Positions 1,183 to 61,213 of a stretch of 64,000 nucleotides of DNA are shown here, in pieces. The translations under genes were made by a program, and so were the position numbers. The stretch covers positions 1,523-65,522 of IMG/VR virus record IMGVR_UViG_3300018877_000005; one strand, written 5' to 3'. The notes beneath the pieces were generated by a model. That model did not search any database, was not told where the DNA came from, and saw only the letters and a list, made by a program, of their open reading frames with translations. Every line of letters begins with the position of its first letter. Positions within the stretch are counted from its first letter, which is position 1. Source of the stretch: a virus.

Positions 1183-1447
1183 AGCTGGACTCCAGATCGG
1201 ACAGGTTACGGGCTTAGAGCTTCGAGTTAAGAGAGGTCGCAATGTTGCTCCATGCTTCCTCTTCAGTGTCCCAATATTCCCTGCCGTCCCTGCCGGTTAT
1301 CGCGGCCTCATCCTCATTGGGTTCAATTATGTAAAAGCCGCAATCATGTCGCTTAACCTTAAAACCAAGGGCGACCATGGGCGCAATATCGGAATGGGTA
1401 TAGTGTGTCATAGCTGGACTCCAGATCGGACAGGTTGCGGGCTTAGA
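1180..1447. repeat. 39-bp direct repeat (1180-1218 and 1409-1447, one mismatch) forming two consecutive gene junctions (stop-spacer-RBS-ATG)
   Basis: catagctggactccagatcggacaggtt(a/g)cgggcttaga occurs twice. Confidence 0.9.
1214..1411 (-). CDS. Hypothetical protein (65 aa)
   Basis: ATG at 1411 with GGAGTC RBS; bounded by the 39-bp repeats. Confidence 0.65.
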   Translation of the reverse strand: MTHYTHSDIAPMVALGFKVKRHDCGFYIIEPNEDEAAITGRDGREYWDTEEEAWSNIATSLNSKL

Positions 1448-2309
1448 TGTTTGCGCCTTCGTTGAATGCGGCTTGAAGCTCTTTGGACGGATAGAAGCCG
1501 GGCAACCATTCCGACACATATTCGCCGCTCTTTAGCTTCTCCATCTCGCCTCGTGCCTCGCGGATGTCTTCGAGCATGGACTCCACCTTGGACCTGACCA
1601 AGCCGCAAAGAGTCCCGTATTTGCTTTGATCGTTGTTCAATGCCGACCTAGCAACTCGAAGCTCTTTGATTGCGGCAATGATGGAGCGGCGAGTCGTCTT
1701 CACCTCTTCGGACAATTGACCGTAACGATTGCCAGCTTGCCATGCGGCTTGGTAAGCCCGCTCTTGTTCACCTACCCGTTCGGCAATGGAGTCGGCACGT
1801 CTAGCGGCTTCTCGCGCTCCATCGTGATCTTTTGCGGAATCTGTCCAACTCCAATAACGATACTTCACATTCCATTCTGGCGCTTCACCCTCAAAGATGG
1901 TCCCGAAGTCTAGGCAAACAGGTCCATTAGAGTCCGCCTTGCCGTTGTTCCAATCCTCATACCCGGCAATGAAAAGCGGCTTGCGTCCACGTCCGGCAAT
2001 CTGGAAAACGACTCCTCTCACTACTTCATTTTGATCGTTGTCCACAAACCATCCTGTATGATCCATGCGGACAAGTTCATGGGCATAGCCAACAAAGCGG
2101 AGCCCGGCAGAACGTGGGTTCTCGATCCAGCGCATATGCTTTGAACCGTAAGCCTCAAACGGCTTACCGCTAGAATAACCCGTATAGATCAAGCTCGAAG
2201 GGTATTTGTCCCGATTGTTCGCAACGTCCAGGCGGGCGGCATGTAGCGCGAGAGTCGCAGGCGCTCCTAATAAACGATGATACTGAAAGCAGGTCTTAAG
2301 GTCGGACAT
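1443..2309 (-). CDS. Hypothetical protein (288 aa) with C-terminal coiled coil
   Basis: Long ORF, ATG at 2309 with GGAGTC RBS. Confidence 0.75.
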   Translation of the reverse strand: MSDLKTCFQYHRLLGAPATLALHAARLDVANNRDKYPSSLIYTGYSSGKPFEAYGSKHMRWIENPRSAGLRFVGYAHELVRMDHTGWFVDNDQNEVVRGVVFQIAGRGRKPLFIAGYEDWNNGKADSNGPVCLDFGTIFEGEAPEWNVKYRYWSWTDSAKDHDGAREAARRADSIAERVGEQERAYQAAWQAGNRYGQLSEEVKTTRRSIIAAIKELRVARSALNNDQSKYGTLCGLVRSKVESMLEDIREARGEMEKLKSGEYVSEWLPGFYPSKELQAAFNEGANI

Positions 2310-3743: not shown

Positions 3744-3771
3744 GACATAGGACCAAAGGTCCTATAGGCAA
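3744..3771 (-). promoter_or_regulatory. Early promoter TTGCCT-N16-TATGTC with operator ATAGGAC-CAAAG-GTCCTAT (3747-3765)
   Basis: Palindrome read directly; heads the leftward early arm. Confidence 0.6.
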
Positions 3772-3781
3772 CCAATACCGA

Positions 3782-4303
3782 GTCCCATGCCTCGCGTCAA
3801 CACTACGTTGACATATCACGGGAATGGGGCGAACGAAAGAGTCAACGATCCATTAAGCCCGCGACAGGTCGGCAAGCCCATGGTCGCTCGAAGCTCAATC
3901 CGTAGAGCCCGGCAAGGTCGGAGTCCTATGGGACAGGATTCACCTCCACCATGGGACGGGACTAGCGGCGGACAAGCCCGGCAGGTCGGCACGGTGGAGC
4001 GGCGGACGGTTGCTTGTGCCGCGTCTCGGCAGGTCGGCAAGGGCGCTAAACCCTCAATCGGAATCCGTGAATCCAATTCCCCTAATCCGTTCGGCAGGTC
4101 TGAAGGTCGGCAGGTCTACCCGTAATCATGGGACGGCATGGGACAAGCGGCGGATGGTCGGCAGGTCTGAAGGTAATGGGACAACATGGGACAATGGGCA
4201 GATGGATGGAGCGGCAACAGGTCGGCACGGGACAACATGGGACAGATTGAGACGACATCGGACCATCTGGAACGTGGTGAGACGGCTTGGCACGGCATGG
4301 GAC
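3782..4303. repeat. Array of ATGGGAC (8 forward, 1 inverted) and GGCAGGTC (5 copies) left of the candidate cos
   Basis: ATGGGAC at 3928, 3951, 4128, 4138, 4176, 4186, 4237, 4297, inverted at 3782; GGCAGGTC at 3980, 4028, 4093, 4109, 4160. Confidence 0.85.
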
Positions 4304-4346
4304 AGAAGGCGCTCCGGGTCCTTCCTGCGGCGGCGATCCACCGGGG

Positions 4347-4358
4347 GGCGCGCGGAGC
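4347..4358 (+). other. Candidate cohesive-end site cosN (GGCGCGCGGAGC)
   Basis: 10/12 identity to the phage Chi 12-nt end as I recall it (GGTGCGCAGAGC); lies in the 1.1-kb gene-free gap between two repeat arrays; TerL is lambda gpA-type. Confidence 0.55.
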
Positions 4359-4415
4359 GCCCTCTCCGACAGTTTTCAACTTTTTTTCCGAAATGGTTTA
4401 GGGGTGCCTCAGACA

Positions 4416-4688
4416 AACTTTCGTCAACGGGTGCTGCCACAAGTGCTGCCACAAGTGCTGCCACAAGTTCAGAAGCTAAGTGGTTAAAATATATATATAT
4501 ATTCTCTCTATACTAACTTTCGTCAGCACTTGTTACGGGGGGTGGCGCAGGGAGAATCTTACCCCCTCGTGGCTCCCTTCGTGGTCAGGTGTCACAAGTG
4601 CTGCCACAAGTTCGTGAAACCGTTGCTGCGTAAGGGTTTGAGGCGTCATCACTTGTGGCACTTGTGGCAGCACCCGTTGACGGAAGTT
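4416..4688. repeat. GTGCTGCCACAA x3 tandem (4431-4466), 4th copy at 4598, inverted copy at 4662; 31-bp inverted repeat (4416-4446 / 4658-4688) around a TA-dinucleotide run
   Basis: Read directly; IR arms differ at one position. Confidence 0.9.
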
Positions 4689-12684: not shown

Positions 12685-13010
12685 TGGCGAAGGCCCCGCT
12701 CGATCCCAAAGAAACGTACATCGAGAACAAGGTTGTCGATTACGCCAAAAAGACCGGCTGGAAACAGCGCAAGCTCTCTTGGGTTGGTCGGCACGGTGCG
12801 CCGGATCGCGTGTTCTTCAAGAGCGGCGTCCTCCTGTTTGTCGAGTTCAAGCAGCGCGGAAAGAAGCCGACACCCAATCAAGAGAAAGAGATCGGGGAAC
12901 TTCGCTCGGAAGGGATGCTCGTGTTCGTGATCGACAATATCGACGCGGGCAAGGCGCTCCTCGACTCCTATCGCTCCCGCAACTACCGCCCAACGGATGA
13001 CCTGATATGA
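12684..13010 (+). CDS. VRR-NUC domain nuclease
   Basis: GAPDRVF..LFVEFKQRGKKPTPNQ. Confidence 0.88.
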   Translation: MAKAPLDPKETYIENKVVDYAKKTGWKQRKLSWVGRHGAPDRVFFKSGVLLFVEFKQRGKKPTPNQEKEIGELRSEGMLVFVIDNIDAGKALLDSYRSRNYRPTDDLI

Positions 13011-14509
13011 GGAAGATCGTTCGTAAGCGGAAAGACCTCCGCAAGTACCAGATCGTCTTTACCAACAAGATCAAGAAACTTCCCTACCTCATCCTGGCGC
13101 TCCCCATGGGATCGGGGAAGACCACGACCACGCTCACCGCGATCCTCGATCTGTTGGACGACGGTGTTATCCGTAAGGTGCTCGTGGTCGCCCCGCTCCT
13201 CGTGGCAACCGCCACATGGCCGGACGAGATGGAGGAGTGGGAGCACCTCACCGATCTGACATGGACCCTCGTTCGCGCCGAGGACAAGGACGAGGACATC
13301 CTCGCGGCCAGAAAAGAAGCCTATGAGACGGCTCGAAAGCTCATCGGGCTCGACGCCAAAGAGGCCGCCAAGTTCGCCGGTCGCTTAGCCAACAAAGCAA
13401 AAGTCTGGAAACGGTCCAAACTCGCCCGCGAGAACACCGAAATCCATATCATCAACCGCGAGGCGCTCCCCTGGCTTTGGGAGTTCTTTGACAACGGTAA
13501 GTCCTGGCCCTATGACATGCTCGTTGTGGACGAAGCGTCCATGTTCAAGAACGGCAAAATGCGGACTGAGACCAAGGCTTTGACGCGGTTCGGTGTGATG
13601 GCTAAGGCTCGGAAATCCGCAGAGCGGGTTGTGCTGTTGACGGGCACCCCGGCACCGAAGGGCCTGCAAAACCTTTGGGGCTTGGCCTACATCGCGGACG
13701 GCGGCGAACGCCTCGGCACATCGAAGCACAAGTTCGAGCAGCGGTGGTTCGAGAAGGATCACATGGGCTGGAAGCTGACGCCTAAACCCTACGCCCAAAA
13801 GCAGATCATGGATGAACTCTCCGACATCATGTACTCCCTGTCGGAAGAGGATTGCGTCACCCTCCCTCCCCTCATCCCGGTCCAGGCGAAAGTCACCCTG
13901 CCCCGCAAGGTGATGGACGAGTATCTGCGCTTTGAGGAGACGCTTCTCTCACAACGGTACGATGTGGAGGCGGTCAACAGGGGCGTATTGCACAATAAGC
14001 TCCTGCAATTCGCCAACGGCAGCATGTATAATGAGGACCGCAAGGAAGTCTGGATTCACGATGAGAAGCTAGAGGCCCTTGAGCAGATCGTTGAAGATGC
14101 CAACGGGATGCCCGTTCTCGTCGCCTATTCCTTCAAGTTCGACCTCGCCCGCATCAAAAAAGCCTTTCCGAAAGCGGTTGTGTTCGGAGAAGGTGACGTC
14201 CGTCGCGTCAAAGAGCGTTGGAACAACGGTGAGATTGATATGCTCCTGGCGCACCCGGCATCGGTCGGCCACGGACAAAACATTCAATACGGCTCGAACA
14301 TCTCCGTGTGGTACGGGTTGACCGTCGATCTCGAACTCTACCAACAGCTTACCAAACGCCTCCACCGCTCGGGCCAGAAGGGGGACCGGGTTTGGATGCA
14401 CCATATCATCGCCAAGGGCACCTATGATGAAAAGGTTCTGCCTCTTCTTACCGACAAGAACTCCACACAGAGTCAAATCCTTGAGTCCATACGGTTTAAG
14501 CTGAAATAA
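13007..14509 (+). CDS. SNF2-like superfamily 2 helicase
   Basis: MGSGKT, VVDEAS, LLTGTP, GHGQNIQ, QLTKRLHRSGQ. Confidence 0.9.
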   Translation: MRKIVRKRKDLRKYQIVFTNKIKKLPYLILALPMGSGKTTTTLTAILDLLDDGVIRKVLVVAPLLVATATWPDEMEEWEHLTDLTWTLVRAEDKDEDILAARKEAYETARKLIGLDAKEAAKFAGRLANKAKVWKRSKLARENTEIHIINREALPWLWEFFDNGKSWPYDMLVVDEASMFKNGKMRTETKALTRFGVMAKARKSAERVVLLTGTPAPKGLQNLWGLAYIADGGERLGTSKHKFEQRWFEKDHMGWKLTPKPYAQKQIMDELSDIMYSLSEEDCVTLPPLIPVQAKVTLPRKVMDEYLRFEETLLSQRYDVEAVNRGVLHNKLLQFANGSMYNEDRKEVWIHDEKLEALEQIVEDANGMPVLVAYSFKFDLARIKKAFPKAVVFGEGDVRRVKERWNNGEIDMLLAHPASVGHGQNIQYGSNISVWYGLTVDLELYQQLTKRLHRSGQKGDRVWMHHIIAKGTYDEKVLPLLTDKNSTQSQILESIRFKLK

Positions 14510-14556
14510 GCCTTGCGAAACCTTCGCGTCCCAGGACTAACACCTTCGGATAGATG

Positions 14557-14572
14557 GTTAACGGGGTTTTAA
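14557..14572 (-). promoter_or_regulatory. Perfect CtrA box TTAA-N7-TTAAC upstream of the repressor gene
   Basis: gttaacggggttttaa = TTAA-AACCCCG-TTAAC on the minus strand. Confidence 0.6.
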
Positions 14573-14722
14573 TCCTTTGGGGCGACGGACAAATCCAACC
14601 AAAAAGTGAAAATCTTCTCGGGGGGCCGATTGACTCGGCTCCAACTTTATATATGTATGTCAACATCAGGTTGATACTGAGGCCAGAAGTCAACCCTCGG
14701 CAACGTATATAAGGGAGACAAC

Positions 14723-15439
14723 ATGCTAGAGGTTCAGGTGAGAAACCCAATAATAGCGGCAGACTTCGCAAAGAGATTGGACATCGCGTGTGACAACAGT
14801 GATGTCGTTCCAGAGTATAACCGTGGTCGTCAAAGCTGGATCGCCAATGAACTACTTCGGCGGTACGATGTCAGCGTCAGTAAAGAGACCGTGCGCAAGT
14901 GGTTCGCAGGTGAGGCCCGCCCCCGCCATGACAAGATGAAGGCACTCGCGGCCCTCCTCAAAGTTGACGAGGCGTGGCTCGCCCTCGGCATGAAGCCGGA
15001 CGCTCAGATCAGCGGCGACCGGCGCTTGCGGAGCATCATCACGGACGGGGCGATCCACCTCGTCATCGGAATGGTGACAATGAGCGGCGGAAGCTGCGCC
15101 TTCCCCGACGACAAGGACCCGCGCCGGGAGACGGTTCACTTCTACACGATCATCGGCGGTCGCACGCATCAGGTCTTCGTGTCGGTCGCGCAGGAATATA
15201 ATGACGGTTTCCGGTTCACCCTGACGCACGACTACACGCAGAGCCTCTGCATCGGTGTGGTTCAGAAGACGGCCACCTCGTTTGATCTGTTCGCCTTCCC
15301 GACGGAAACGATTGCCAAGCACGGGAAGAAGCGCGGCGGCTATATCGAGTTGCAGGCTTCCGTCGAAGGCCGCTCCCTCGTGATCGGAGACGAGAAGGTC
15401 GCCCGCGTCACCGATTTCAAGAGCCTTCGCCGCCAATGA
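14723..15439 (+). CDS. XRE-family HTH repressor (candidate immunity repressor), C-terminal domain unassigned
   Basis: VSKETVRKWFAGEARPRHDKMKALAALLKVDEAWLALG; no recognisable S24 autopeptidase. Confidence 0.75.
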   Translation: MLEVQVRNPIIAADFAKRLDIACDNSDVVPEYNRGRQSWIANELLRRYDVSVSKETVRKWFAGEARPRHDKMKALAALLKVDEAWLALGMKPDAQISGDRRLRSIITDGAIHLVIGMVTMSGGSCAFPDDKDPRRETVHFYTIIGGRTHQVFVSVAQEYNDGFRFTLTHDYTQSLCIGVVQKTATSFDLFAFPTETIAKHGKKRGGYIELQASVEGRSLVIGDEKVARVTDFKSLRRQ

Positions 15440-15542
15440 GCCGGGAGACCATTATCAAGCCCTTATTACGGGCACGAGAGAAACCGCCGCCGACACCTCG
15501 CCCGAACCCTTGGGCGAGGTTTTTGATTTCAGGAGAGCCCCC

Positions 15543-15788
15543 ATGAATGAGCTTGAACAGAAGATCGCGGACCTGCGCCTCGCGCCTGGAGGGCCGTCCG
15601 TTGGCGAGGTGTTGATCGCCGGCCTCAAGAGCCTCGGGCGCAAACCCGAAATCGGGCTCGCCAGGGCCTATATCTCTCGCATTGTGGAGATCGCTCAGGC
15701 GGAGCGCGATATTGCCGTGGGCGAGGCTCTCTCGTGGCCTAAAGACGGCAAGCCTCGGGATTGCTTCGGCAACACCCTATCGGACTAA
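15543..15788 (+). CDS. Hypothetical protein (81 aa)
   Basis: AGGAG RBS before the ATG at 15543. Confidence 0.55.
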   Translation: MNELEQKIADLRLAPGGPSVGEVLIAGLKSLGRKPEIGLARAYISRIVEIAQAERDIAVGEALSWPKDGKPRDCFGNTLSD

Positions 15789-15812
15789 AAGAAAAGGGGC
15801 CTCGTGGCCCCT
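15787..15812 (-). terminator. Terminator for the leftward par operon
   Basis: ggggcc-tcgt-ggcccc with an A tract on its left. Confidence 0.6.
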
Positions 15813-15849
15813 ATGAAGTCAATGAAGTCAATGAAGTCATTCACTTCAT
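15813..15849. repeat. Downstream parS-like array: ATGAAGTCA x3 plus one inverted copy
   Basis: Copies at 15813, 15822, 15831; inverted TCACTTCAT at 15841. Confidence 0.8.
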
Positions 15850-15866
15850 TGACAGGCGCGAATGGC

Positions 15867-16292
15867 TTACTTCGCCCGCTCCCGCTCCAGCATATCCATC
15901 AGCATATCGAATGCCTCCCGATAGCTCGGGATACGCTCATCGTGGCACCATTGCAGGAACGCATTGTGCGATCTGACGGAGATGCGTGCCGTGAACGATA
16001 TGGTCGGTTCATCGACCTGCTTGCGGCGGCGCATAGGCATGAACGGTTGCGGAGCCTCGACCTGCGCGACAGGTGATGCTTTGGAATTGGTGCGCGTAGC
16101 CTTCGGGGCCGGATCGGGCTTCTTAGGGGCGGCCTCGTGACCCCCCTCCCCTACTGGCCCATCCGTCTTATCCCAACCCGCCTTGCGTGAAAGCTCAGTC
16201 ACCGCCTTTTCCGCCTCGGGCGGGAGAGGGGGAAGTTCTACTTTCCGCACCCTCGGAATTTGCGGAGTCGGGCGTTCCAACTTCTCACTCAC
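15867..16292 (-). CDS. Type Ib partition centromere-binding protein (disordered N-terminus, C-terminal ribbon-helix-helix-like)
   Basis: GTGA overlap with parA; C-terminal TISFTARIS strand followed by two helices. Confidence 0.6.
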   Translation of the reverse strand: MSEKLERPTPQIPRVRKVELPPLPPEAEKAVTELSRKAGWDKTDGPVGEGGHEAAPKKPDPAPKATRTNSKASPVAQVEAPQPFMPMRRRKQVDEPTISFTARISVRSHNAFLQWCHDERIPSYREAFDMLMDMLERERAK

Positions 16293-16981
16293 GCTGCGTC
16301 CCTCCCCTCTCCTGTAATTTTGCCAAGTGCGATCTCAACCTCGTCAACCCATTTATCGGCGTTTGCGATGGCCTCCTCTACACCGTTCACTTCCTTGATC
16401 CCAAGCCTGATGAAGTCGTCCAGGGTTGCGGCGAAAGTGAACATGGATTCGTAGGCCACCCGAAGTTGAATGCGGGTCTCAAAAAGCGGGAGTTGGAGCT
16501 TCTCAATGTCGGCCCGAATGTTCCTCTCACCAATCGTAGGTCTCGCCCGACATTTGGTCATGAGCATGTGAAATGGGATTCTCTTCCCCAACACCTCTTC
16601 CTCGTCTTGCACGAGACCTGCGGACTTGAATGCCTCGTCCGCATCCAACTGAGTTGCGCCAAGCGGGACGATGACCATTGTCGCACGGGCGATGGCCCGT
16701 GAAGCGGTCATGTTGGTGGACCCCTCAAGATCGACAAGCACCATGTCAGACTCGCGGTACGCCCTGTCGATCTCTTTGATGACGTTCTCCGTCTTCACGT
16801 CGGAGATCACATCGAAAACCTTGTTCTTAGCGCGGCTGTGCCACCGGGAGATTGGTTGGTTCCGGTCGGCGTCCAGAATTGTTACTTTGTAGCCGCGTGC
16901 GGCGAGGCGCGTCCCGAGAATGGCGCAGGAGGTGGACTTACCCGCGCCCCCTTTGGCTGACGTGAATGGAACGATTGGCAT
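16289..16981 (-). CDS. parA: ParA partition ATPase, short type Ib (no N-terminal HTH)
   Basis: Deviant Walker A SAKGGAGKSTS, LDADRN, VLVDLEG, IVPLG; AGGAAGG RBS supports a start at 16981. Confidence 0.9.
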   Translation of the reverse strand: MPIVPFTSAKGGAGKSTSCAILGTRLAARGYKVTILDADRNQPISRWHSRAKNKVFDVISDVKTENVIKEIDRAYRESDMVLVDLEGSTNMTASRAIARATMVIVPLGATQLDADEAFKSAGLVQDEEEVLGKRIPFHMLMTKCRARPTIGERNIRADIEKLQLPLFETRIQLRVAYESMFTFAATLDDFIRLGIKEVNGVEEAIANADKWVDEVEIALGKITGEGRDAA

Positions 16982-17017
16982 GAATGGCTTCCTTCCTGTC
17001 ATTGGCATCACCGACAC

Positions 17018-17235
17018 CAATGACTTACCTGCTTTCAATGCGGTCACGTCACTCAATGCCATCCATGAATTAACGTCAGGTAAAGAAGTCAGTTAAATGA
17101 CTTCATTGAATTACATGACTTCATTGACTTCATTAAACGCGGTCAACGCATTGACCTATTCTAATGAAGTGATGGCATTGACGGCGGTTAACGCCTTGAC
17201 TGGCATTAATGAAATGACCGGGGTGACTTACTCCA
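17018..17235. repeat. Upstream parS/operator array: degenerate 9-bp periodic TGACTTCAT repeats
   Basis: Exact copies at 17098, 17116, 17125, with many in-phase variants; same 9-mer as at 15813. Confidence 0.75.
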
Positions 17236-17239
17236 GTGA

Positions 17240-17269
17240 GCGGGCTCCCGAGGTGACTCGGGAGCCCGC
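17240..17269. repeat. Perfect 13-bp-stem hairpin GCGGGCTCCCGAG-gtga-CTCGGGAGCCCGC
   Basis: Read directly. Confidence 0.85.
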
Positions 17270-17493
17270 CACCTTGGTTCTCAGGCGCGGCCTTGAAACC
17301 GGGTCCGTTCCCCTCTATCTTAGCCAAGGAACCGAGGGGATTTTTAGCCCCCCTCGGAACCTTCGGCGTTTTAAAGGGTCACGGAAAGGGTCAGTTTCCG
17401 TTTCCCCCACCGAAGCTCGATTGTGAACTTGATGCTCACTTTCTTGCCTCCGTGAAGTGTCAGGCACCGCGCCTGACCCATTCTTGATACAGC

Positions 17494-17530
17494 AAAGCCT
17501 CATTAGGTCCAATGGTCCTAGTGAGGCTTT
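17494..17530. promoter_or_regulatory. 37-bp near-palindrome (16/18 arm match) containing the TTAGGTC-N5-GTCCTAG operator
   Basis: AAAGCCTCATTAGGTCCA-A-TGGTCCTAGTGAGGCTTT. Confidence 0.7.
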
Positions 17531-17591
17531 CTGCATTTTTGGGGAGTTGTCCACAGGTGAGGTGGCCTTGACCGGGGACTCGTGGGGAATC

Positions 17592-17864
17592 ATGATTCCC
17601 CACATGGCTGCATGTGATCCCGCCTCGACCATCAAAAGCTCTGCGTTCCTGCGGAAAATCGACCCCGGTAAGAACTGCCACCGCTTTTATGCACTTCTCA
17701 TTGAGCGGGACCTTTTCGGGAATACGTGCCTCGTGCGCCACTATGGCCGGATCGGCACCCAAGGTCATGAAATGGTTGAGTCTTTCCCCTCGGAAGGGGA
17801 GGCGCAACGCGCCCTCGAAAGTCTCCTCCGCCGGAAACTGTCACGCGGATATATCACCCTCTAG
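17592..17864 (+). CDS. Stand-alone WGR-domain protein
   Basis: LRKIDPGKNCHRFYAL..DLFG..LVRHYGRIGTQG..KLSRGY. Confidence 0.85.
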   Translation: MIPHMAACDPASTIKSSAFLRKIDPGKNCHRFYALLIERDLFGNTCLVRHYGRIGTQGHEMVESFPSEGEAQRALESLLRRKLSRGYITL

Positions 17865-18112
17865 TTGATATTGAGCCTTGACGGCGGAGCGATTCCCACG
17901 CTTCCTACGCAATTATTGTTCTGAGAGGAGCGGACACGCTGCGATGAGCTAGAAAAGGAAAGGGCTCCGAGACGGCAATCTCGAAGCCCTTTAAATCCGG
18001 TGGGTTGGTCAACCCCTAAGCAAGAGCGACCTTCCCACAAAATTCGGAACTCGTCAACGGAGATCGATTCTCCGAACGGTCCCTTTTTGTGCAAAGCGCA
18101 GCCCGTAAGGGA

Positions 18113-18772
18113 ATGACGCAAACGAATACCTACGCGGCTATCGAGGCCGCGCTTCGTGCTGACTTGGCGGCACTGCCTCGGTGCCGGGTCCGTGAGGACG
18201 CGCTCAGGATCGGGCTCTTTATCGCCCGCACCCATGCCGCCTATGACCGGCTGTTCACGTTCCCCCGCGAAATCATGGCCGGACACAAGGCGCTCCTGGC
18301 CGCGTGCGGGGAGATGACCGCCTCGCGGGTACGCTCGTGCCTGAAAGCCCTTATCAAGCTCGGATGGATCGAGCAGACGAACGAGGATACGTTCTTCTAT
18401 CGGCGCTTTGGCGTGTGGAAGGACACCCCCAACCAATACCGCTCGGGCTCTAAGCTCTCAGCGTTTTTCCCCGAAACTGCCACGATAAGAGAATCCTCTG
18501 ACGAGATTCTAGAGATAGTGGCAGTTAAGGACCTGCCGCCGATCAAGCCCAAGGGGAAGTCTCGCCGGGCGATCAATCTGGCGCTCAAGCTCAAGCGCCT
18601 CGCGGCGGCCATAGCTCTGCGGAAGGCGGAAGCCGCCAAGCCTCGGGAGCGCCTCTCGCGGCCCGTGATGCCGCACTCGACCGAACAGAGCCCGGCGTTC
18701 AACTCGTGGCTCGACCGGCTGCAAGCGACCCTCGCGCCCAACGCTCTCGCGGCGAGTACCGGATCAGCGTAG
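18113..18772 (+). CDS. Candidate plasmid replication initiator (winged-helix-like), family unassigned
   Basis: TASRVRSCLKALIKLGWIEQ wHTH-like segment, basic C-terminus, position next to the par locus. Confidence 0.4.
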   Translation: MTQTNTYAAIEAALRADLAALPRCRVREDALRIGLFIARTHAAYDRLFTFPREIMAGHKALLAACGEMTASRVRSCLKALIKLGWIEQTNEDTFFYRRFGVWKDTPNQYRSGSKLSAFFPETATIRESSDEILEIVAVKDLPPIKPKGKSRRAINLALKLKRLAAAIALRKAEAAKPRERLSRPVMPHSTEQSPAFNSWLDRLQATLAPNALAASTGSA

Positions 18773-18859
18773 GGGAGGGGGGTTTCACTACGCTTGCTCG
18801 GGAAAAGTCGTGGCAACTCAAGGGCGATATTGGTTAATGAAAATTCATCATTTTTCCGC

Positions 18860-18888
18860 TTGACCTATAGGACTAACGGTCCTATGTA
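18860..18888 (+). promoter_or_regulatory. Promoter TTGACC-N17-TATGTA with operator ATAGGAC-TAACG-GTCCTAT (18867-18885)
   Basis: Read directly. Confidence 0.7.
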
Positions 18889-18913
18889 TAGTTCACCGCA
18901 ACGGAGAACACAC

Positions 18914-19114
18914 ATGACCGAGACAGCCGACGTTGAAGATCGCAAGACAGCCACGGGGAACAAGCTACGCGCCGCCATTGATGCTTTTAACAGCGCGGCC
19001 AGAGAAGCCGCAGATTTGGGTCTCCGTGTGGAGTTGGAGCATCTAGACCTCCGACGGACGGACCTCCCCTTTCCGGTCCCGGTTCTGTCGGTCGAGATTT
19101 ACGAACGGCGGTAA
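18914..19114 (+). CDS. Hypothetical protein (66 aa)
   Basis: GGAG RBS; first gene after the operator-controlled promoter. Confidence 0.65.
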   Translation: MTETADVEDRKTATGNKLRAAIDAFNSAAREAADLGLRVELEHLDLRRTDLPFPVPVLSVEIYERR

Positions 19115-19147
19115 CGCCCCTCCACCCCATCACAGTAGGAAACGATC

Positions 19148-19408
19148 ATGACCGACAAAGAATTCGCCGACGCCCTCAAGTCTGACGCGGGCGAACTCGT
19201 CAAGGTGCTCACCGCAGCCCTCCAGACGGCAGAGCGCCTCGTTATCACCTCGGAGATGCCGGCCCTTGCCACGCAGGACCTCGGCGTCCTTGAGGTGGAA
19301 CTGAGCACCGCTAACCGGCTCTGCAAAGACGCCCGCAAGCTGTTCACGGAAAAGGACGCCTCCGATCTTCTGGAGTCGGAGCCCGCGAGCGGAAGGAACG
19401 CGCTTTGA
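19148..19408 (+). CDS. Hypothetical protein
   Basis: ORF track; AGGA RBS. Confidence 0.6.
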   Translation: MTDKEFADALKSDAGELVKVLTAALQTAERLVITSEMPALATQDLGVLEVELSTANRLCKDARKLFTEKDASDLLESEPASGRNAL

Positions 19409-19617
19409 CACCCGCGCAACTTAGGGCAGGGGCGGCGGAGTCCCGCGCCGTCGCAACGAAGCTCAGTGAGACGGTAGACAAGATCAAGGGACACCCGCTC
19501 ACCGTGGATCAAGCCATAGCCTATCAAACCCTGTCTGCCTTGTTCGCCGGGACGGCTCGCGTCCTCACCGCCATGGCAGACGCCGCAGAACCTCAGAAGG
19601 GGCAAGGCGCAGCATGA
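19405..19617 (+). CDS. Hypothetical protein
   Basis: Overlapping start/stop with neighbours. Confidence 0.5.
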   Translation: MTPAQLRAGAAESRAVATKLSETVDKIKGHPLTVDQAIAYQTLSALFAGTARVLTAMADAAEPQKGQGAA

Positions 19618-19877
19618 CAAAAGAAAAACCAATGACGGCGGCGGAGTACCGTGAGGCGCTCCGCAAGCTCGATCTCTCGCAGGTCTCGGGGGCGACGGTC
19701 CTCGGGATCACCCCGCGATCCTCCAGGCGCTACGCCAGTGACCGCAGGGTGCCGACCAACATAGCGCGGACCCTGCGCTACCTCCTCAAGACCAAGACCG
19801 CGCCAGCGGACTACCTTGCAACTCTCGGGATCAAGGCCGAACTGACGCCCTACCATGAAACGGAGTACGACTCGTGA
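19614..19877 (+). CDS. XRE-like HTH protein (Cro/antirepressor-like)
   Basis: MTAAEYREALRKLDLSQVSGATVLGITPRSSRRYAS. Confidence 0.75.
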   Translation: MTKEKPMTAAEYREALRKLDLSQVSGATVLGITPRSSRRYASDRRVPTNIARTLRYLLKTKTAPADYLATLGIKAELTPYHETEYDS

Positions 19878-20803
19878 CTCTCCTGGCGCAAGAGATACTC
19901 GAACTCGATACCGTTGATCTGAGCGAAAGCTACCCGAATAGGCGGCGTGCAATCTCGATGCTCGCCTACATCCAGGAGCACTTGACCGGGGGGAAGATCA
20001 AGGGTCGCCCCATCCCACGGGCCGAACGCTTCGTGTTCGAGGAATCTCCCACCCGTGCCATGGAGAGATTGATCGAGGTCGGGCAAATCGAATACCCAAG
20101 CATTCTGCCAACACTCCGATACCCTTTCGAGAGCATGTGGTTTGAATGGCCGATTGAGCAGGACGGACTCAAAGGGCGTGAAGGGATACACGTTGATTCT
20201 CGCTTCGTCGGCTCGACAGGTGAGGGCGCATGGAAGGGCTTCAACTCGCTCCTACCTGTCCGAATGAGCCTAATCCGCCGCTTTGACGGCGCGGGTGTTC
20301 CGGTCAACGTGTTCCCCGTCGCCCACGGTCTTTATGCGCCCCTGCCTCGGGAGGAAGGTGAGGGGGATCAAGTGCGGAAGCATTTTTCTCTCCGAAAGGA
20401 GATGGGGGTTGATCTTGAGCATGACGATGACGAGTTCGCCTATCTGAGAACCGCCGTGGAGGTGGCGATCTTCCTCCTGATAACCCCTCGCGTGGCGCAG
20501 CAACATGAAGTCACTCATGGTCCGGCAATCCAGAAGAAGCGGGTCATGCGGGGGAAGCCACCCCTCGTTGACTATAAGAGGGTGACGCTCACGGTCGGCG
20601 TCCGCTCTCCGACATCACCACGGTCGGCGATCTCGTCAGGCAACGCCGCCGCGCAACGCAAGCTGCATCCGGTCATGGGCCACTTCCGCACCTATACTGA
20701 GGGGCGGGAGACTCCCAAAATCTCGTGGGTTCTGCCTCACTGGCGCGGCGATCCCGAACTCGGCGTCGTGCATAGAACCCGCAACGTGAAGGTGCCGAAA
20801 TGA
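19874..20803 (+). CDS. Conserved phage hypothetical protein
   Basis: C-terminal HPVMGHFR..WVLPHWRGD motif common in phage proteins. Confidence 0.65.
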   Translation: MTLLAQEILELDTVDLSESYPNRRRAISMLAYIQEHLTGGKIKGRPIPRAERFVFEESPTRAMERLIEVGQIEYPSILPTLRYPFESMWFEWPIEQDGLKGREGIHVDSRFVGSTGEGAWKGFNSLLPVRMSLIRRFDGAGVPVNVFPVAHGLYAPLPREEGEGDQVRKHFSLRKEMGVDLEHDDDEFAYLRTAVEVAIFLLITPRVAQQHEVTHGPAIQKKRVMRGKPPLVDYKRVTLTVGVRSPTSPRSAISSGNAAAQRKLHPVMGHFRTYTEGRETPKISWVLPHWRGDPELGVVHRTRNVKVPK

Positions 20804-21066
20804 TCGACCCCTTGAGATGGGAGCAGCAATCCGAGGGCTCATGGTACGGCTATAGCGGCAAGATGGTTGTCGCTATGGTGGTGCGACGTGCCGAGGGGGA
20901 GTGGGCGTGGGAAGTCTCGGGCGGTCGCGTGCCGCACGGATGGAAGAACTACGGTGGGACGCGGACGGAGAGGTTCGCCAAGCGTGCCGCAAGCGACTAC
21001 TGGCGGGAATGGCTCGATCACGTCGGGCTTATGCCCTACAGCCCAACGGAAGGGGGAGAGGAATGA
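20800..21066 (+). CDS. Hypothetical Trp-rich protein
   Basis: ATGA overlap with the previous gene. Confidence 0.6.
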   Translation: MIDPLRWEQQSEGSWYGYSGKMVVAMVVRRAEGEWAWEVSGGRVPHGWKNYGGTRTERFAKRAASDYWREWLDHVGLMPYSPTEGGEE

Positions 21067-21233
21067 GTATAGGTGGCGGGAAGAAGATCAAACAGACGCA
21101 GCAACCGCAGGTCGGGTGGTCGAAGGCCATGAAAGCGGTCGCGTCCCGATTCCAGACCATTGACGAGAGGGCGCAGGAACGGGCGCAGCGCATAAAGGAC
21201 CGTCTTGCGGCGCGGGACAAAGATCAAGGGTGA
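21063..21233 (+). CDS. Small basic hypothetical protein (56 aa)
   Basis: ATGA overlap, GAGG RBS. Confidence 0.45.
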   Translation: MSIGGGKKIKQTQQPQVGWSKAMKAVASRFQTIDERAQERAQRIKDRLAARDKDQG

Positions 21234-21251
21234 GGCGGGCGGCGTGTTCGT

Positions 21252-21293
21252 CTGACATGGAAAGGGGCGCTTCGGCGTCCCTTTCCATGTCAG
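21252..21293. terminator. 19-bp stem with UUCG loop, terminator-like
   Basis: ctgacatggaaaggggcgc-ttcg-gcgtccctttccatgtcag. Confidence 0.65.
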
Positions 21294-21388
21294 GGGATGC
21301 CATGTTGTCGCATGTCGTCCCAAAACCAGGCTTGAATGTCACCATTAAAGTGACTATACAACTGTCCATTGAGACAACATGGGACACC

Positions 21389-21619
21389 ATGACAACCATT
21401 GACACAAGAGACGAGGACCTGCGCCTCCTGCGGATCGATCAAGTCTTAGAGCTTGTTCCGTTCGCCCGCTCGTCCCTCTATCGCGCAATCAAGGCGGGGG
21501 AGTTCCCGGCCCCGATCAAGTTCGGCGGCGTGTCGCTTTGGAGCAATCAGGAAATCCGCGCCTGGAAAGGCCGCCTCATGGCGTCCCGGTTCGACCGCGA
21601 CAATGACGACTTAGTGTGA
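21389..21619 (+). CDS. alpA: AlpA/excisionase-like DNA-binding protein
   Basis: RLLRIDQVLELVPFARSSLYRAIKAGEFPAPIKFG..LW. Confidence 0.85.
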   Translation: MTTIDTRDEDLRLLRIDQVLELVPFARSSLYRAIKAGEFPAPIKFGGVSLWSNQEIRAWKGRLMASRFDRDNDDLV

Positions 21620-21623
21620 CGGT

Positions 21624-22247
21624 ATGGCTCGGAGAGATGATGATCTGATAGGCGGGGGTGAGCCCGTCGAACAAGTGTCCCTGCGGACGGCGGACGTTCA
21701 TAGCGTCCTCGGCGGCGTGTCGGTCCCGTGGCTCATGAAGGCGTTCCGCATGGGGCGCGGCACGGTCGAGAAGAAGTTGCGCGGATGCCAGCCCATCGGC
21801 CACGGCAAGCACAACACGCCCCTCTATGACCTGCCGGAAGCGGCGAGCTACCTCGTCAAGCCTCGCGTCAACATGGAGGAGTACCTTCGCAGCCTGAAGC
21901 CTGACAACCTGCCTGAGCGGCTGCGCGAGAGCTATTGGAGCGCCAAGCTCAAAGAGCAGCGGTGGCGCGAAAAGGCCGGCGATCTCTGGCGCACCTCGGA
22001 CGTGCTGACCGTGTTCGGTGAGGTGCTCCAAAACATGCGGACCCGGCTCCAACTCCTGCCGGACGCCATCGAACGCGCAGCCGGACTCGATGAGCGCCAG
22101 TTCGCAGCCGCCAGGGCGGCGGTCGATGAGGTTCAGGACGACATCTATCAGGAGCTTCAATCCCTCGCCAAGACCGGCAGGACCTTGAGCCAACTCGGGG
22201 AAGAGGAGGGTGGCGATACTCGGGACGATGAGGACGATCTGATATGA
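21624..22247 (+). CDS. terS: Terminase small subunit (Chi-like/DUF1441-like)
   Basis: Directly upstream of TerL; N-terminal wHTH-like region, helical C-terminus. Confidence 0.75.
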   Translation: MARRDDDLIGGGEPVEQVSLRTADVHSVLGGVSVPWLMKAFRMGRGTVEKKLRGCQPIGHGKHNTPLYDLPEAASYLVKPRVNMEEYLRSLKPDNLPERLRESYWSAKLKEQRWREKAGDLWRTSDVLTVFGEVLQNMRTRLQLLPDAIERAAGLDERQFAAARAAVDEVQDDIYQELQSLAKTGRTLSQLGEEEGGDTRDDEDDLI

Positions 22248-24388: not shown

Positions 24389-25537
24389 ATGGCTAAACGA
24401 AACAAGGATGATTTATCCTCCAAGCGGCCTTTGTCGCAGGACGATAACAAGATTACACGGGCGACCCGAAAGCAGGTGCTCGATGACCTGCGCAAGATGG
24501 CGACGGACAACCCCGACAAGGTGATCTCGCGCAACTTCTACCGGATCAACTCGCAGTACGCGGAATCGGCCTGGAACGCGCATTTCGGCACCTTCGCGGA
24601 GTTCAAGCGACATGCCGGCATCACGCTCTCGCGCCACGCCCACCGCATGGAAAAGGACATCGCGAAGCACGCCTCGAAGGACCTGCAACGGCAGATGACC
24701 GGCGAGAAGATGGGCTATGAGGGCAAGTATCTCCGCCCGTGCAACAAGCGGTTTCAGACCATCGTCAATGTGTCGGACCTGCACGACATCACTTGCGACC
24801 CGTTCTTGCGCCGTCTCTTCATTGAGGCGTGTCGGCGTATCAAGCCGGAAAAGATCGTGCTCAATGGCGATACCTTCGATCTGCCCGAGTTCGGCAAATA
24901 CACGCAGGACCCTCGCGCCTACAAGCTCATCGAGCGCGTCGAGTGGGTGCATACCCTCCTCAAAGAGCTTCGCGAGATTTGCCCCGAGGCGGAAATCGTC
25001 ATGGTGGAGGGCAATCACGAGTTTCGCTTGATCCGGCATCTGACGGAGGCCACGCCCGCCCTCGTGACGGTGCTCTCCGATCTGCACGGCTTTACCGTCG
25101 CCTCGCTCCTCGGCCTCGACAAGTTCGAGGTGAACTACGTCGCCAGGATGGACTTGGCCGCCTTCAATGAGCGCGACATCAAATCGGAACTCGCCAAGAA
25201 CTACTTCATCGCCTATGACGCGGTGCTGTTCCATCACTTCCCCGAAGGTGCGAAGATGGGCTATCCCGGCACCAACGGGCACCATCACAAGTACCAAGCC
25301 GCCTCGTACTATTCCCCGATCTTCGGCCCCTATCAGTGGGTGCAGACCGGCTCAGGGCATATGCGTTCGGCCTCGTACTGCGCGGCGGAGAAGTGGTCGA
25401 ACGGCTTCCTCGTGATCCACGTCGATACGCACACCCGGCATAGCGTGTTCGAGTACGTGGACATTCGAGACTTCGCGGTCCTGGGCGGCGAGTTCTACAC
25501 CCGCCAGGAGGGGGAGGGCGTCTATCCCTTGCGGTAG
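24389..25537 (+). CDS. Calcineurin-like metallophosphoesterase with an N-terminal homing-endonuclease-repeat-like domain
   Basis: SDLH, LNGDTFD, EGNHE, FHH, GHHH; N-terminal W..HFGTFAEF...AG. Confidence 0.8.
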   Translation: MAKRNKDDLSSKRPLSQDDNKITRATRKQVLDDLRKMATDNPDKVISRNFYRINSQYAESAWNAHFGTFAEFKRHAGITLSRHAHRMEKDIAKHASKDLQRQMTGEKMGYEGKYLRPCNKRFQTIVNVSDLHDITCDPFLRRLFIEACRRIKPEKIVLNGDTFDLPEFGKYTQDPRAYKLIERVEWVHTLLKELREICPEAEIVMVEGNHEFRLIRHLTEATPALVTVLSDLHGFTVASLLGLDKFEVNYVARMDLAAFNERDIKSELAKNYFIAYDAVLFHHFPEGAKMGYPGTNGHHHKYQAASYYSPIFGPYQWVQTGSGHMRSASYCAAEKWSNGFLVIHVDTHTRHSVFEYVDIRDFAVLGGEFYTRQEGEGVYPLR

Positions 25538-54842: not shown

Positions 54843-55847
54843 TCACGCGACAAGTGACCGCAGGATGGCCGCGTAACCGCCTTCCGCCTCCTCGTGGTCA
54901 AGGTCAAATCTACGTTTGATGTCAGCAATGTAGTCGGTTTCGCGCTCGACCAAGATTGCATTCCTCCCTTCATCCAGCGCGGCTTGTCCTGTCGTACCCG
55001 ATCCTGAGAACGGATCGAGAACAAAACCATACTTGGGAGTCACCAGTCTGACAAGATGTCGCAGAAGTGCGACGGGCTTAACGGTTGCGTGATCGGAGCC
55101 GGCGCGGTCCTCTTTCGTGGCCTTGCCGTGGTGGAAGATATTGGCCTCCAAGGGAAAGCTCGCGAAATACTCCAGGGGCACCCGTGCTCCGACCTCGGGC
55201 GAACCATCTGTGAGTAAGTTCGACGGCCAGCGGTCGCCGGGACCGCGACAGGCATCGACGTTCATCGCCCCTGCGCCATGCTTCAGGACGTTCGCGATCC
55301 CGGTCTTTTCCGAGAACGGCTTCTGAGCGACGTAGATCGGCTCCAGGGCCGGTTTCAGGGTTTGGGTGGAATGATACCATCCCTCCCACTCTTCCGTGCC
55401 GACCGGGCTCTTTCCCGGCTTGTGGATCGCGTGCGCCTTCGGGAAGCCGGTATGATAGGTCCAGGCGATGAACGGGTGCATCTTGAAGCCCGCCGCTTCC
55501 ATGGCGACGGCTTGGTGATGCCCGGTCGAGGCGTGCGAGAAGGCGAGGCAGTAGCCGCCCGGCAGGAGCAGGTCATAGACCCGCCGCCAGAACGTCGGAT
55601 CATGCGCAATCTTGTAACCGTTGTCGCCGCCGTCCCATGTGCGCTCCATGAAGCCTCGGGATTGCCGGGCGAACCGTCCGTCGGAGCCCGCCTTCGCGGC
55701 CTTCGAGCCCTCTTTGCCGAACCGCTTGACGATGGATTCGAGGTAGTAGGGCGGGTCTGTGACGCACGAATGAACCTGCACGCCCTCGGCGGCAAGCTCC
55801 ACGAGGACATCGTTCGCGTCCCCCTCACATAAACGGACGGTCGCCAT
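54843..55847 (-). CDS. DNA methyltransferase, N6-adenine/N4-cytosine beta class
   Basis: Motif IV VTDPPY before motif I VLDPFSGSGTT; HATVKP. Confidence 0.9.
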   Translation of the reverse strand: MATVRLCEGDANDVLVELAAEGVQVHSCVTDPPYYLESIVKRFGKEGSKAAKAGSDGRFARQSRGFMERTWDGGDNGYKIAHDPTFWRRVYDLLLPGGYCLAFSHASTGHHQAVAMEAAGFKMHPFIAWTYHTGFPKAHAIHKPGKSPVGTEEWEGWYHSTQTLKPALEPIYVAQKPFSEKTGIANVLKHGAGAMNVDACRGPGDRWPSNLLTDGSPEVGARVPLEYFASFPLEANIFHHGKATKEDRAGSDHATVKPVALLRHLVRLVTPKYGFVLDPFSGSGTTGQAALDEGRNAILVERETDYIADIKRRFDLDHEEAEGGYAAILRSLVA

Positions 55848-56080
55848 TAGATCAGGTCCTCGTTCTGGCGCTTTTTGATGGGGTTGTCGCGCTTCTGTTC
55901 GTCCCGATGGCAGAGCGCGTTGTAGAGGGCGTCCACAGGGTCGGCCTGTATCTCGACCTTGTAGGCACCGGAGTCGTCCATGCGGGCGCTCACTTGGAAT
56001 CCGTCCATGACGGGCACGAGCATGATTGTTCTAATGGAGCCGTCCGCGAACGCTCGCCGGATCATCTCTTCGAGGGACAT
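55847..56080 (-). CDS. Hypothetical protein, paralog of 56080-56328
   Basis: MSLEEMIRRA...NEDLI. Confidence 0.6.
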   Translation of the reverse strand: MSLEEMIRRAFADGSIRTIMLVPVMDGFQVSARMDDSGAYKVEIQADPVDALYNALCHRDEQKRDNPIKKRQNEDLI

Positions 56081-56328
56081 CAGATCAAATCCTCAGAACG
56101 GCCCCGTAGAGGCGCGGCAGGAGGGGTTGTGGGGGTTCGGGAGGGCTTGACGTTCATCGCGCCTAGAATGGCCGCTACAACGTCCTTATCGCGGTGCCTG
56201 ACGTTGGCCTTGGCCTTCACGTCCACGTAGGCGACATCCCATCCCTTGCCGTCAGAGGAGGGAGCGATGCTCAGGTAGTTGAGACGCCCGCTCTCGGCGG
56301 CTTTGCGGAGGGTATCTTCGAGGCTCAT
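56080..56328 (-). CDS. Hypothetical protein, paralog of 55847-56080
   Basis: MSLEDTLRKA...SEDLI. Confidence 0.6.
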   Translation of the reverse strand: MSLEDTLRKAAESGRLNYLSIAPSSDGKGWDVAYVDVKAKANVRHRDKDVVAAILGAMNVKPSRTPTTPPAAPLRGRSEDLI

Positions 56329-56426
56329 CGGATGGCCCCGAGGGTGATCGCCACGGGGAGTCCGAACGCTGCAACGAAGATGAGGGCGAGGACGACTCTA
56401 GCGCCGATCTTCTCAACCTTACGCAT
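56325..56426 (-). CDS. Small membrane peptide (33 aa)
   Basis: MRKVEKIGARVVLALIFVAAFGLPVAITLGAIR. Confidence 0.4.
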   Translation of the reverse strand: MRKVEKIGARVVLALIFVAAFGLPVAITLGAIR

Positions 56427-56427
56427 C

Positions 56428-56718
56428 TCAGCCTGCCATCCCGAGGGCCTGCATGTAGAGTTCGAGGATTGCCTCTTCCTCCTGGCGCTCGGCGTAGTCG
56501 CGTTTGCGCAGGGCGATGATGCGACGGATGACCTTCGTGTCGAAGCCGTTGCCCTTGGCCTCGGCATACACCTCGCGGATGTCGCCCGAGATGCCGGCCT
56601 TCTCTTCTTCGAGGCGCTCGATCCTCTCGACAAACGCCTTCAGTTGATCGCCCGCAACCGACTCCGTGTTGAACGCACGGTCGGAGTTGTGGCCGATCAA
56701 ATCGTCATTGCGTGACAT
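56428..56718 (-). CDS. gapR: GapR (DUF2312/UPF0335) nucleoid-associated protein
   Basis: [54 protein letters not shown]. Confidence 0.93.
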
Positions 56719-56754
56719 GCTGTTCTCCTAGTCACTATTTGGTTGAAATTCAGG

Positions 56755-57186: not shown

Positions 57187-57250
57187 GATTTGCCCCTTGT
57201 TCGGTAAGGCTTGGCTCACCGTAGTTGATTTGTCAATGTTAGGTTGAGAT

Positions 57251-57997: not shown

Positions 57998-58009
57998 GAT
58001 CGTTCGTCC

Positions 58010-58792: not shown

Positions 58793-58925
58793 TGGACAAC
58801 CCTATTGTCACCATTAGGTTGACGTTATGAGCGCGGTTTTATCGTTTTGCAAGGGGAAGATCGCAAAGACAGCCTCACACAAGCATCTCGGGCTTAGGTG
58901 CCGACTGAGATCATAGGGGGTTCGG

Positions 58926-61138: not shown

Positions 61139-61213
61139 TGACCACCTCCAATTCCTTAATCATTTCAAGGACTTAGGTTCCATAATCTTCATTATACGAA
61201 TCCGCGATCGATC

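Follow-up and report, generated by a model that had tools for sequence, protein, structure and literature searches.

We analysed a 64-kb stretch of viral DNA (the window), which comprises bases 1523-65522 of the 67,072-bp IMG/VR record IMGVR_UViG_3300018877_000005, from a biocrust metagenome and with a CheckV completeness of 100%; coordinates below are those of the window unless stated otherwise. The subject is the variable slot between the SNF2 helicase gene and the small terminase gene (terS), where an earlier note, made from the sequence letters alone, had placed a plasmid maintenance module. The large terminase (TerL) is 62% identical to that of Loktanella phage pCB2051-A (Casjensviridae, Broinstvirus) and 54-59% identical to those of other Chi-like phages. 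The replication block encodes, in order, a P4-type primase-helicase, an exonuclease, a Gp2.5-like single-stranded DNA-binding protein, a DNA polymerase, a VRR-NUC protein and the SNF2 helicase, after which come terS and terL. The TerS, TerL, portal, protease, capsid, tail, tape-measure and replication genes are syntenic with those of Chi-like relatives. Given the TerL identity and this synteny of the replication block and virion genes, the label Chi-like is sound; the placement in Casjensviridae reflects TerL identity and gene order. Helicase and terS are near neighbours in pCB2051-A and in four IMG/VR relatives, in line with the earlier note.

The slot holds every element that had been listed between the helicase and terS, some at corrected coordinates. 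Its conserved left anchor is the SNF2 helicase (13007-14509, plus strand; PF00176, 1.1e-14), with 71% and 69% identity to the helicases of two integrase-carrying relatives, G001 (IMGVR_UViG_3300031180_000001) and G002 (IMGVR_UViG_2740892185_000002). Then follow, on the same strand, a candidate CI-like helix-turn-helix (HTH) repressor of 238 amino acids (14723-15439; HTH_3, 1.6e-4; phrog_2967, 3.2e-20) and a 92-residue open reading frame (ORF; 15510-15788) that has no Pfam or PHROG match and is 79% identical in a sister contig, L019. This sister is an independent contig from another sample that keeps the whole cassette, with 82.6% nucleotide identity across 13000-18917. On the right the slot is closed by an AlpA-like HTH gene (21230-21619, plus strand; PF05930, 1.5e-9), of which probably only the last ~76 codons are coding, and by a small terminase of the DUF1441 type (21624-22247, plus strand; phrog_141, 8.5e-40; PF07278, 6e-13).

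The partition genes lie in the middle of the slot on the minus strand. ParA (16289-16981; VirC1, 8.6e-20) was taken as a 230-residue ATPase, although its longest ORF extends to 17062. Its best solved relative is TP228 ParF (4dzz, 7e-14), to which it aligns from residue 1; there is no N-terminal HTH, and the deviant Walker A motif KGGAGKST is intact. We therefore place the predicted protein with the small type Ib (ParF-like) ATPases. Its nearest named relative is a ParA of Microvirga massiliensis (55% identity), and a single-protein ParA scan of IMG/VR found no relative. Directly downstream, a gene that overlaps the parA stop codon (15867-16292, minus strand) encodes a protein of 141 residues, laid out as a conserved N-terminal tail, a variable Pro/Lys-rich linker and a C-terminal segment of 44 residues. 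In an AlphaFold2 (AF2) monomer this segment is modelled as strand-helix-helix (helices 106-118 and 124-140; predicted local distance difference test >90). Nearly all fold matches are ribbon-helix-helix (RHH) proteins: pCXC100 ParB (root-mean-square deviation 1.9 over 43 residues), ParG, Arc and RHH antitoxins, all with Z scores of 4.4 or lower. In an Ochrobactrum plasmid and in Aurantimonas phage AmM-1, ParA is followed by a small ORF to which the C-terminus is homologous in pairwise comparison, and a protein atlas gave the lead "stability/partitioning determinant". A word-based search matched only the protein itself and its sister, and the N-terminal tail is kept across homologues that are 50% identical. 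These properties make the 141-residue protein a candidate centromere-binding protein.

Repeats of 9 bp flank the two genes on both sides. Upstream of parA, about 26 degenerate units occupy 16940-17235, with an autocorrelation at lags 9, 18 and 27 of 0.47-0.50; none of 5000 shuffles was as high, and this is the strongest such stretch in the window. Downstream, a smaller centromere-like cluster (15813-15853) consists of three direct 9-bp units and one inverted copy. The unit TGAAGTCA occurs 8 times against 1.44 expected, with six of the copies flanking parAB. Both arrays are kept in the sister, and they are best read as a candidate centromere made of short repeats adjoining the operon, the upstream array perhaps doubling as par operator. 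The parA gene with an RHH-like partner and flanking repeats, which the earlier note had described, is thus borne out by a ParF-like ATPase, an RHH-modelled C-terminus and two statistically significant arrays. An ORF of 109 codons overlying the upstream array (17097-17426) was rejected as a gene: its GC content at third codon positions (GC3) barely exceeds that at second positions (GC2), and it is not called in the sister.

Divergently from parA, a gene for a stand-alone WGR-domain protein (17592-17864, plus strand; PF05406, 1.4e-19) is present as claimed, with its start corrected from 17457 to near 17592; the protein has 86 residues in the sister and the gene keeps its position relative to parA. 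Upstream of it is a non-coding stretch of about 600 bp, of which the 365 bp before the gene (17236-17600, plus strand) are highly structured, with a folding z score of -6.46 relative to shuffles and five hairpins that are kept in the sister through seven compensatory pairs. The same region contains a promoter-like element (TTGAAA-17-TATCTT), a 17-bp operator-like palindrome at 17504-17520 and a DnaA-box-like nonamer, TTGTCCACA, at 17547, which is a perfect consensus box at the same spot in the sister. DnaA-like boxes are not enriched in the window (3 against 5.4 expected), and an Rfam scan of 14400-21700 returned one chance-level miRNA match and no family in 17236-17600. We regard the region as a candidate prophage origin or regulatory RNA. 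A second large non-coding zone (3770-4500) adjoins the primase gene and contains short repeats of the GGCAGGTC and ATGGGACA types, an AT-rich tract and three 12-bp direct repeats, GTGCTGCCACAA, with similar motifs at the contig ends; it is a candidate lytic origin and/or cos region, and a third option for the prophage origin.

Next to the WGR gene lies an orphan gene (18089-18772, plus strand) for a protein of 219-227 residues, which had been called a winged helix-turn-helix (wHTH) Rep-like gene. The winged-helix part of that description stands, and a Rep function is at most a possibility. The AF2 model has a single winged-helix domain (residues ~6-116) followed by helices, and fold searches of the PDB and the AlphaFold database returned only generic wHTH regulators, with Foldseek E values of 0.03 or worse. 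No Pfam or PHROG family matched, and the hallmarks of iteron-type initiators that we looked for, two tandem winged-helix domains and a Rep family match, were not found. Relatives are few: four from a word-based search and five from an exhaustive search of 1.84 billion representatives. A remote winged-helix homologue directly follows ParA and a 75-residue ORF in another phage-like contig. Neighbours in a protein language model (HTH_36, RepL and IncFII_repA clusters) serve as leads only, and we rejected filing the protein as a Rep because of the missing family match and the generic fold matches; it is best described as a candidate initiator or regulator.

A family of 17-bp palindromes of the TAGGNCCAANGGTCCTA type has five sites, against 0.07 expected, located at early-region and cassette promoters (741-757, 2580-2596, 3748-3764, 17504-17520 and 18868-18884); the site at 3748-3764 is at the head of the leftward early operon. 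They are candidate operators. The last of them lies within a promoter-like element (18860-18895, plus strand; TTGACC-17-TATGTA) ahead of the genes at 18914-21619, in agreement with the second operator-controlled operon that had been proposed. The repressor of the earlier note corresponds to the HTH_3/phrog_2967 regulator described above, which shares 36-41% identity with its positional counterparts in the relatives G001 (36%), G002, L031 and L042; a comparison with PDB sequences gave nothing useful. Upstream of the repressor promoter is a CtrA-box-like TTAA-N7-TTAA motif (14558-14572, plus strand), the sole copy in the window. At least one copy arose in 8 of 100 shuffles; the sister keeps both half-sites with a spacer differing at 5 of 7 positions, and the motif is absent from the same spacer in the integrase-type relatives.

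The operon behind the second promoter (18914-21066, plus strand) consists of small accessory ORFs (18914-19114, 19148-19408, 19405-19617, 19614-19877 and 20800-21066) and a gene for a 309-residue protein (19874-20803), and it is mosaic between phage and sister, which has an HTH gene where the 309-residue gene sits. By language-model and structure neighbours the 309-residue protein is an AcrVA2-like candidate: its neighbours are phage clusters in which 13-15% of the members carry an AcrVA2-like annotation. It is a candidate anti-defence gene.

To place the cassette in context, we compared the slot in 17 IMG/VR loci, the sister contig and pCB2051-A. Three states occur. In five relatives the slot consists of helicase, AlpA and terS only. 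In nine, a tyrosine integrase is present, with the order repressor-integrase-AlpA in four contigs that span the full slot and five further contigs that are partial. The par cassette was found in this phage and its sister alone among the sampled relatives. The slot of G001 encodes a repressor, a 395-residue tyrosine integrase with arm-binding, SAM-like and catalytic domains, AlpA and TerS. G002, one of the partial contigs and classed as a provirus, runs from the integrase at its start to the helicase and repressor at its end, as would be expected if attP lay between the repressor and the integrase. Neither G001 nor G002 has a ParA, and the ~5.8 kb at 15440-21229 have no counterpart in either. 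In a TerL tree the par-carrying pair forms one clade (100/100) that groups with two integrase-type relatives (90/91). Of the 16 other relatives with sequence on that side of terS, 15 have AlpA ahead of terS, among them relatives without an integrase; for this reason we rejected AlpA as a sign of excision. The repressor and the AlpA-like gene thus appear to be ancestral to the temperate sub-lineage. Given the slot states and the TerL tree, it seems that only the integrase was replaced by the par block, in a lineage that was already temperate, and that attP was presumably lost with it. This corrects the earlier picture of a plasmid module grafted into a virulent Chi-like phage. Some Chi-like Salmonella phages have been called temperate on account of an integrase-like gene (PMC6631126).

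One further relative deserves mention. phiTHAF39 from Marinobacter sp. THAF39 (NZ_CP045368.1) is a 56-kb circular record that was deposited as a plasmid; its genome is Chi-like (TerL 47% identical) and includes a site-specific integrase and an HTH regulator. It thus represents a temperate relative whose genome was recovered as a free circle when an isolate was assembled. We rejected it as a parallel Chi-like phage-plasmid, since it carries an integrase and no ParA was found in the 50 kb examined.

The slot comparison also bears on whether the phage is temperate at all. It could be effectively lytic or pseudolysogenic, with ParA and the RHH protein positioning replicating phage DNA, disturbing the segregation of the host chromosome or of plasmids, or supporting an unstable carrier state. 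Some Chi-like relatives do lack any lysogeny genes, and neither a plasmid Rep nor an addiction module was recognised here. However, the cassette lies beside a conserved CI-like repressor and exactly where relatives have their integrase, and the five-site operator family at the early promoters also speaks against a purely lytic life. We consider this explanation unlikely, and two further observations given below count against it.

If the prophage does not integrate, integration genes should be missing from the genome, and the earlier note had seen no integrase, recombinase or protelomerase in the window. This holds for the entire record: a six-frame hidden Markov model search of all 67 kb for tyrosine integrases, resolvases, large serine recombinases, rve transposases and protelomerases (PF00589, PF00239, PF07508, PF00665 and PF16684 (ResT/TelK)) was empty with positive controls, and Pfam and PHROG scans of most non-structural proteins showed no recombinase domain. 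The caveat that an integrase might hide outside the window is thereby largely lifted. The last 67 bases of the record repeat its bases 2-68 exactly, an overlap that is the signature of a circular or terminally redundant assembly. The ends fall in a repeat-rich non-coding zone, and an 80-nt unitig at the right end has a depth of 24.7x compared to 14.7x for its neighbour (~1.7 times); among assembled contigs, no joints were seen at the right end.

These ends, and the origin of the record as a single metagenomic contig, also raise the concern that the arrangement is an artefact, either a chimeric assembly or a decaying, non-working remnant. The evidence argues strongly in the other direction. In the sister, an independent contig from a different sample, the cassette is joined to its surroundings at the same points on either side. 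Another sample from the source study contains a variant that is ~99% identical over the compared end region, along with 45% of the sampled words of the cassette. Moreover, all cassette ORFs are open, with GC3 above GC2 as in the remainder of the genome, and the catalytic motif of ParA is intact. An artefact is therefore very improbable.

Scans of viral and genome contigs with an alignment of the partner protein found the same cassette in one other place, a contig of the isolate M. massiliensis JC119; since nothing else was found, the cassette is either rare or too divergent for such scans. The contig (C24; LN811373.1, 73.6 kb) is listed in its entirety as the virus IMGVR_UViG_2634166464_000002. 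Its cassette has a mirror-image layout, with a gene for a 259-residue protein, a WGR gene (83 residues, at the same position relative to parA) and then, divergently, ParA (55% identity) and the 141-residue partner (50%). The 259-residue protein is weakly similar to our winged-helix protein (pairwise E 0.005) and matches it in position, and 9-bp units of the CAATGAAGT type are present on both flanks of the cassette, including after the partner gene, so that the same kind of array recurs. The remainder of C24 is an unrelated phage with a different terminase, portal and capsid; the cassette alone is shared. None of the 33 integrase hits in the JC119 genome is on C24, and its ORFs scanned with PHROGs are of phage or phage-auxiliary types. 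The head genes are split between the two ends of the contig, with TerL and portal on the left and protease and capsid on the right, and only circular closure would bring them together into one module. The contig thus offers circumstantial support for the idea that the cassette maintains a phage as an extrachromosomal element in a cultured bacterium, and the presence of the cassette in a phage contig of an isolate is the first of the two observations that speak against an effectively lytic phage. Further C24 products include a radical-SAM protein, a queuine tRNA-ribosyltransferase-like protein, RecT and a ParB_N protein (e.g., L054:9311-10378 and L055:6672-7598), a hint that this probable phage-plasmid may have a pathway for modifying DNA with 7-deazaguanine.

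The second observation is a dif-like Xer site of the 11-6-11 type in an intergenic gap at 61175-61202 (minus strand), a candidate dimer-resolution site. Its core, ATAA-N6-TTAT, is present in a single copy in the 67-kb record. On the non-phage contigs of M. massiliensis a single dif-like site was found; its arms and those of the phage site agree at 20 of 21 positions, whereas the central 6 bp differ (TGAAGA in the phage, GATATA in the Microvirga site). In C24 the phage site recurs with 21 of 24 arm positions identical, and no other DNA in that region is common to the two phages; by our rough calculation, the chance of so good a match in 147 kb is ~3e-5. The integrase-type relatives G001 and G002 do not have the dif-like site. 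Conserved arms combined with a private central region are typical of plasmid resolution sites. The site fits a circular low-copy prophage and would point to a Microvirga-like host; we infer both that the M. massiliensis site is the true dif and that this genome represents the host. A dif-like site would be sensible only for a stably replicating circle, which again disfavours a lytic phage. A first pattern for dif in M. massiliensis (ATAAT-N5-ATTATG) was discarded, as it matched a site that does not look like dif. Two other Microvirga loci (G003:C12:316178-316201 and G003:C13:74095-74118) have the same Xer-type arms (TTCGCAGAA ... TTATGGAA) around a 7-bp centre, and may be resolution sites of other replicons or elements.

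The dif-like site allows a different reading, in which the phage integrates at the chromosomal dif through host XerCD, in the manner of CTX-phi and other integrative mobile elements exploiting Xer, and the par genes serve a transient circle or some other purpose. The close match of the arms to the Microvirga site and the lack of an own integrase would suit such a route. The centres differ, however, and a differing Xer centre disfavours productive exchange with dif, while leaving exchange between two identical phage copies unaffected. An intact par operon with two arrays, kept in three elements, would be needless in an integrated prophage, and the JC119 element with this site forms a contig of its own, on which the scanned ORFs are all phage-like. 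Integration via XerCD is thus quite improbable.

The par cassette in the slot of the integrase and the same cassette in an extrachromosomal-looking Microvirga phage contig lend support to the proposal of the earlier note. We conclude that this is a probable phage-plasmid, i.e., a temperate, cos-type Chi-like siphovirus predicted to lysogenise as a circular plasmid and not by integration, and we put the probability of this reading at about 0.75. The host is probably a Microvirga-like alphaproteobacterium.

Several points weigh against this conclusion. The plasmid state is predicted from comparative genomics and not measured directly. Given the repeat-rich end zone and the ~1.7-fold unitig depth, a short unassembled stretch between the contig ends is possible. 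There is no recognised plasmid replication initiator, the winged-helix protein having one winged-helix domain and no Rep match, and no toxin-antitoxin pair was recognised. The repressor is a candidate, called from an HTH_3 match below the Pfam cut-off and a PHROG family, with no operator assigned to it. Finally, C24 has no terminal overlap, and we infer its circularity from gene order alone.

How a phage-plasmid of this kind might have arisen and be maintained can be outlined as follows. The ancestor would have had a repressor-integrase-AlpA lysogeny block between helicase and terS, in which the integrase was replaced by a portable plasmid-maintenance cassette. After infection, the genome would circularise via cos ends and the HTH repressor would shut the early promoters, with the 17-bp palindromes as candidate operators. 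The genome would then replicate as a low-copy circle, with initiation either in the structured non-coding region, together with the adjacent winged-helix protein, or at the origin of the phage primase-helicase. The RHH protein is expected to bind both 9-bp arrays flanking parAB and to recruit the ParF-like ATPase, so that copies are segregated at cell division, and host XerCD would resolve dimers at the dif-like site of the phage. A bolder and rather doubtful extension is that the conserved unit (arrays, ParA, RHH partner, non-coding region, WGR and winged-helix genes) is a new portable replicon-plus-partition cassette, in which WGR and winged-helix proteins or the hairpin RNA constitute a new initiation system, and which turns integrative phages of soil Alphaproteobacteria into phage-plasmids in one step, by taking the place of the integrase.

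Outside the slot, the early arm (54843-63367, minus strand, and genome positions 1344-2012, minus strand) contains accessory genes for a DNA methyltransferase, a nucleotide kinase, a dATP/dGTP pyrophosphohydrolase-like protein, a thymidylate synthase, a dNMP phosphatase, a GapR-like DNA-binding protein (56428-56718) and an ArdA antirestriction protein. These suggest possible functions in nucleotide or DNA modification and anti-defence. Among these minus-strand genes, a plus-strand gene (58926-60422) encodes a full-length flagellar hook FlgE-like protein of 498 residues, with Flg_bb_rod, FlgE D1 and D2, Flagellin_IN and Flg_bbr_C domains; the phage belongs to the flagellotropic Chi group, and neither G001 nor G002 has a homologue. 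Between TerL and a gpW-like gene lies a gene for a 382-residue calcineurin-like metallophosphoesterase (24389-25537, plus strand), which is present in the sister and has no homologue in G001 or G002.

Phage-plasmids are increasingly viewed as a bridge between phages and plasmids, and the well-studied groups are few and mostly enterobacterial or actinobacterial. We found no report of a Chi-like phage-plasmid in the literature searched. If our reading is true, the Chi-like group and soil Hyphomicrobiales would be added to the known range of phage-plasmids, and Microvirga genetics would gain a candidate replicon and stability cassette. One Chi-like lineage offers three natural states of the same slot (empty of lysogeny genes, with an integrase, or with a partition cassette); together with the same cassette in an unrelated phage of the same host genus, this makes the switch from an integrative to a plasmid prophage directly comparable. 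The kind of element and the partition mechanism are otherwise orthodox.

Among known systems, one comparison is with the relatives G001, G002 and pCB2051-A, which have the same virion, packaging and replication modules (TerL 62-75%, helicase 62-71% identical). The temperate ones among them share the repressor and AlpA flanks with this phage; where it has the 5.8-kb par/WGR/wHTH block, the relatives have a 395-residue tyrosine integrase, or nothing. The partition system itself is reminiscent of ParF-ParG-parH of TP228 (4dzz, 5u1g and 1p94), with a ParF-like ParA, a partner predicted to consist of a flexible N-terminal tail and a C-terminal RHH domain, and short repeats adjoining the operon. The resemblance has its limits: ParA aligns over only ~177 residues at low identity, the partner has no sequence match to ParG, and there are two 9-bp arrays, one on each side, in a phage and not in a resistance plasmid. 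Two flanking arrays resemble parC1 and parC2 of the pB171 par2 system more than parH.

Phage P1 relies on a type Ia ParA/ParB pair, an iteron-binding RepA and its own Cre/lox system, whereas in the phage described here ParA is of type Ib and is paired with a predicted RHH protein, no Rep was recognised, and dimer resolution apparently depends on the Xer system of the host. As a proposed low-copy circular phage-plasmid with ParA-type partition it is nevertheless like P1, a temperate tailed phage that is maintained as a low-copy circle with ParA-type partition, a centromere and a dimer-resolution site (summarised in PMC7157519).

A precedent is provided by the cluster A mycobacteriophages (RedRock, Alma, Miko and others), in which the substitution of parABS for an integrase has been tested experimentally (PMC7157519). 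They differ from this phage in their actinobacterial host, their unrelated backbone and a partner annotated as ParB-like, in place of which we find a ParF-like type Ib ATPase, a 141-residue RHH protein, a WGR gene and an orphan winged-helix gene. The extrachromosomal, low-copy state of their prophages has been shown by experiment (PMC7157519), whereas that of our phage is predicted from sequence. In cluster A the prophage origin adjoining parABS is either based on RepA, an HTH protein, or RNA-based (PMC7157519), and by analogy either a RepA-like or an RNA-based origin could apply here. The likeness extends to genome organisation: in both groups a single lineage has either an integrase or parAB at the same genomic position, and clusters of short direct repeats, named parS-L and parS-R in the mycobacteriophages, flank parAB (PMC7157519).

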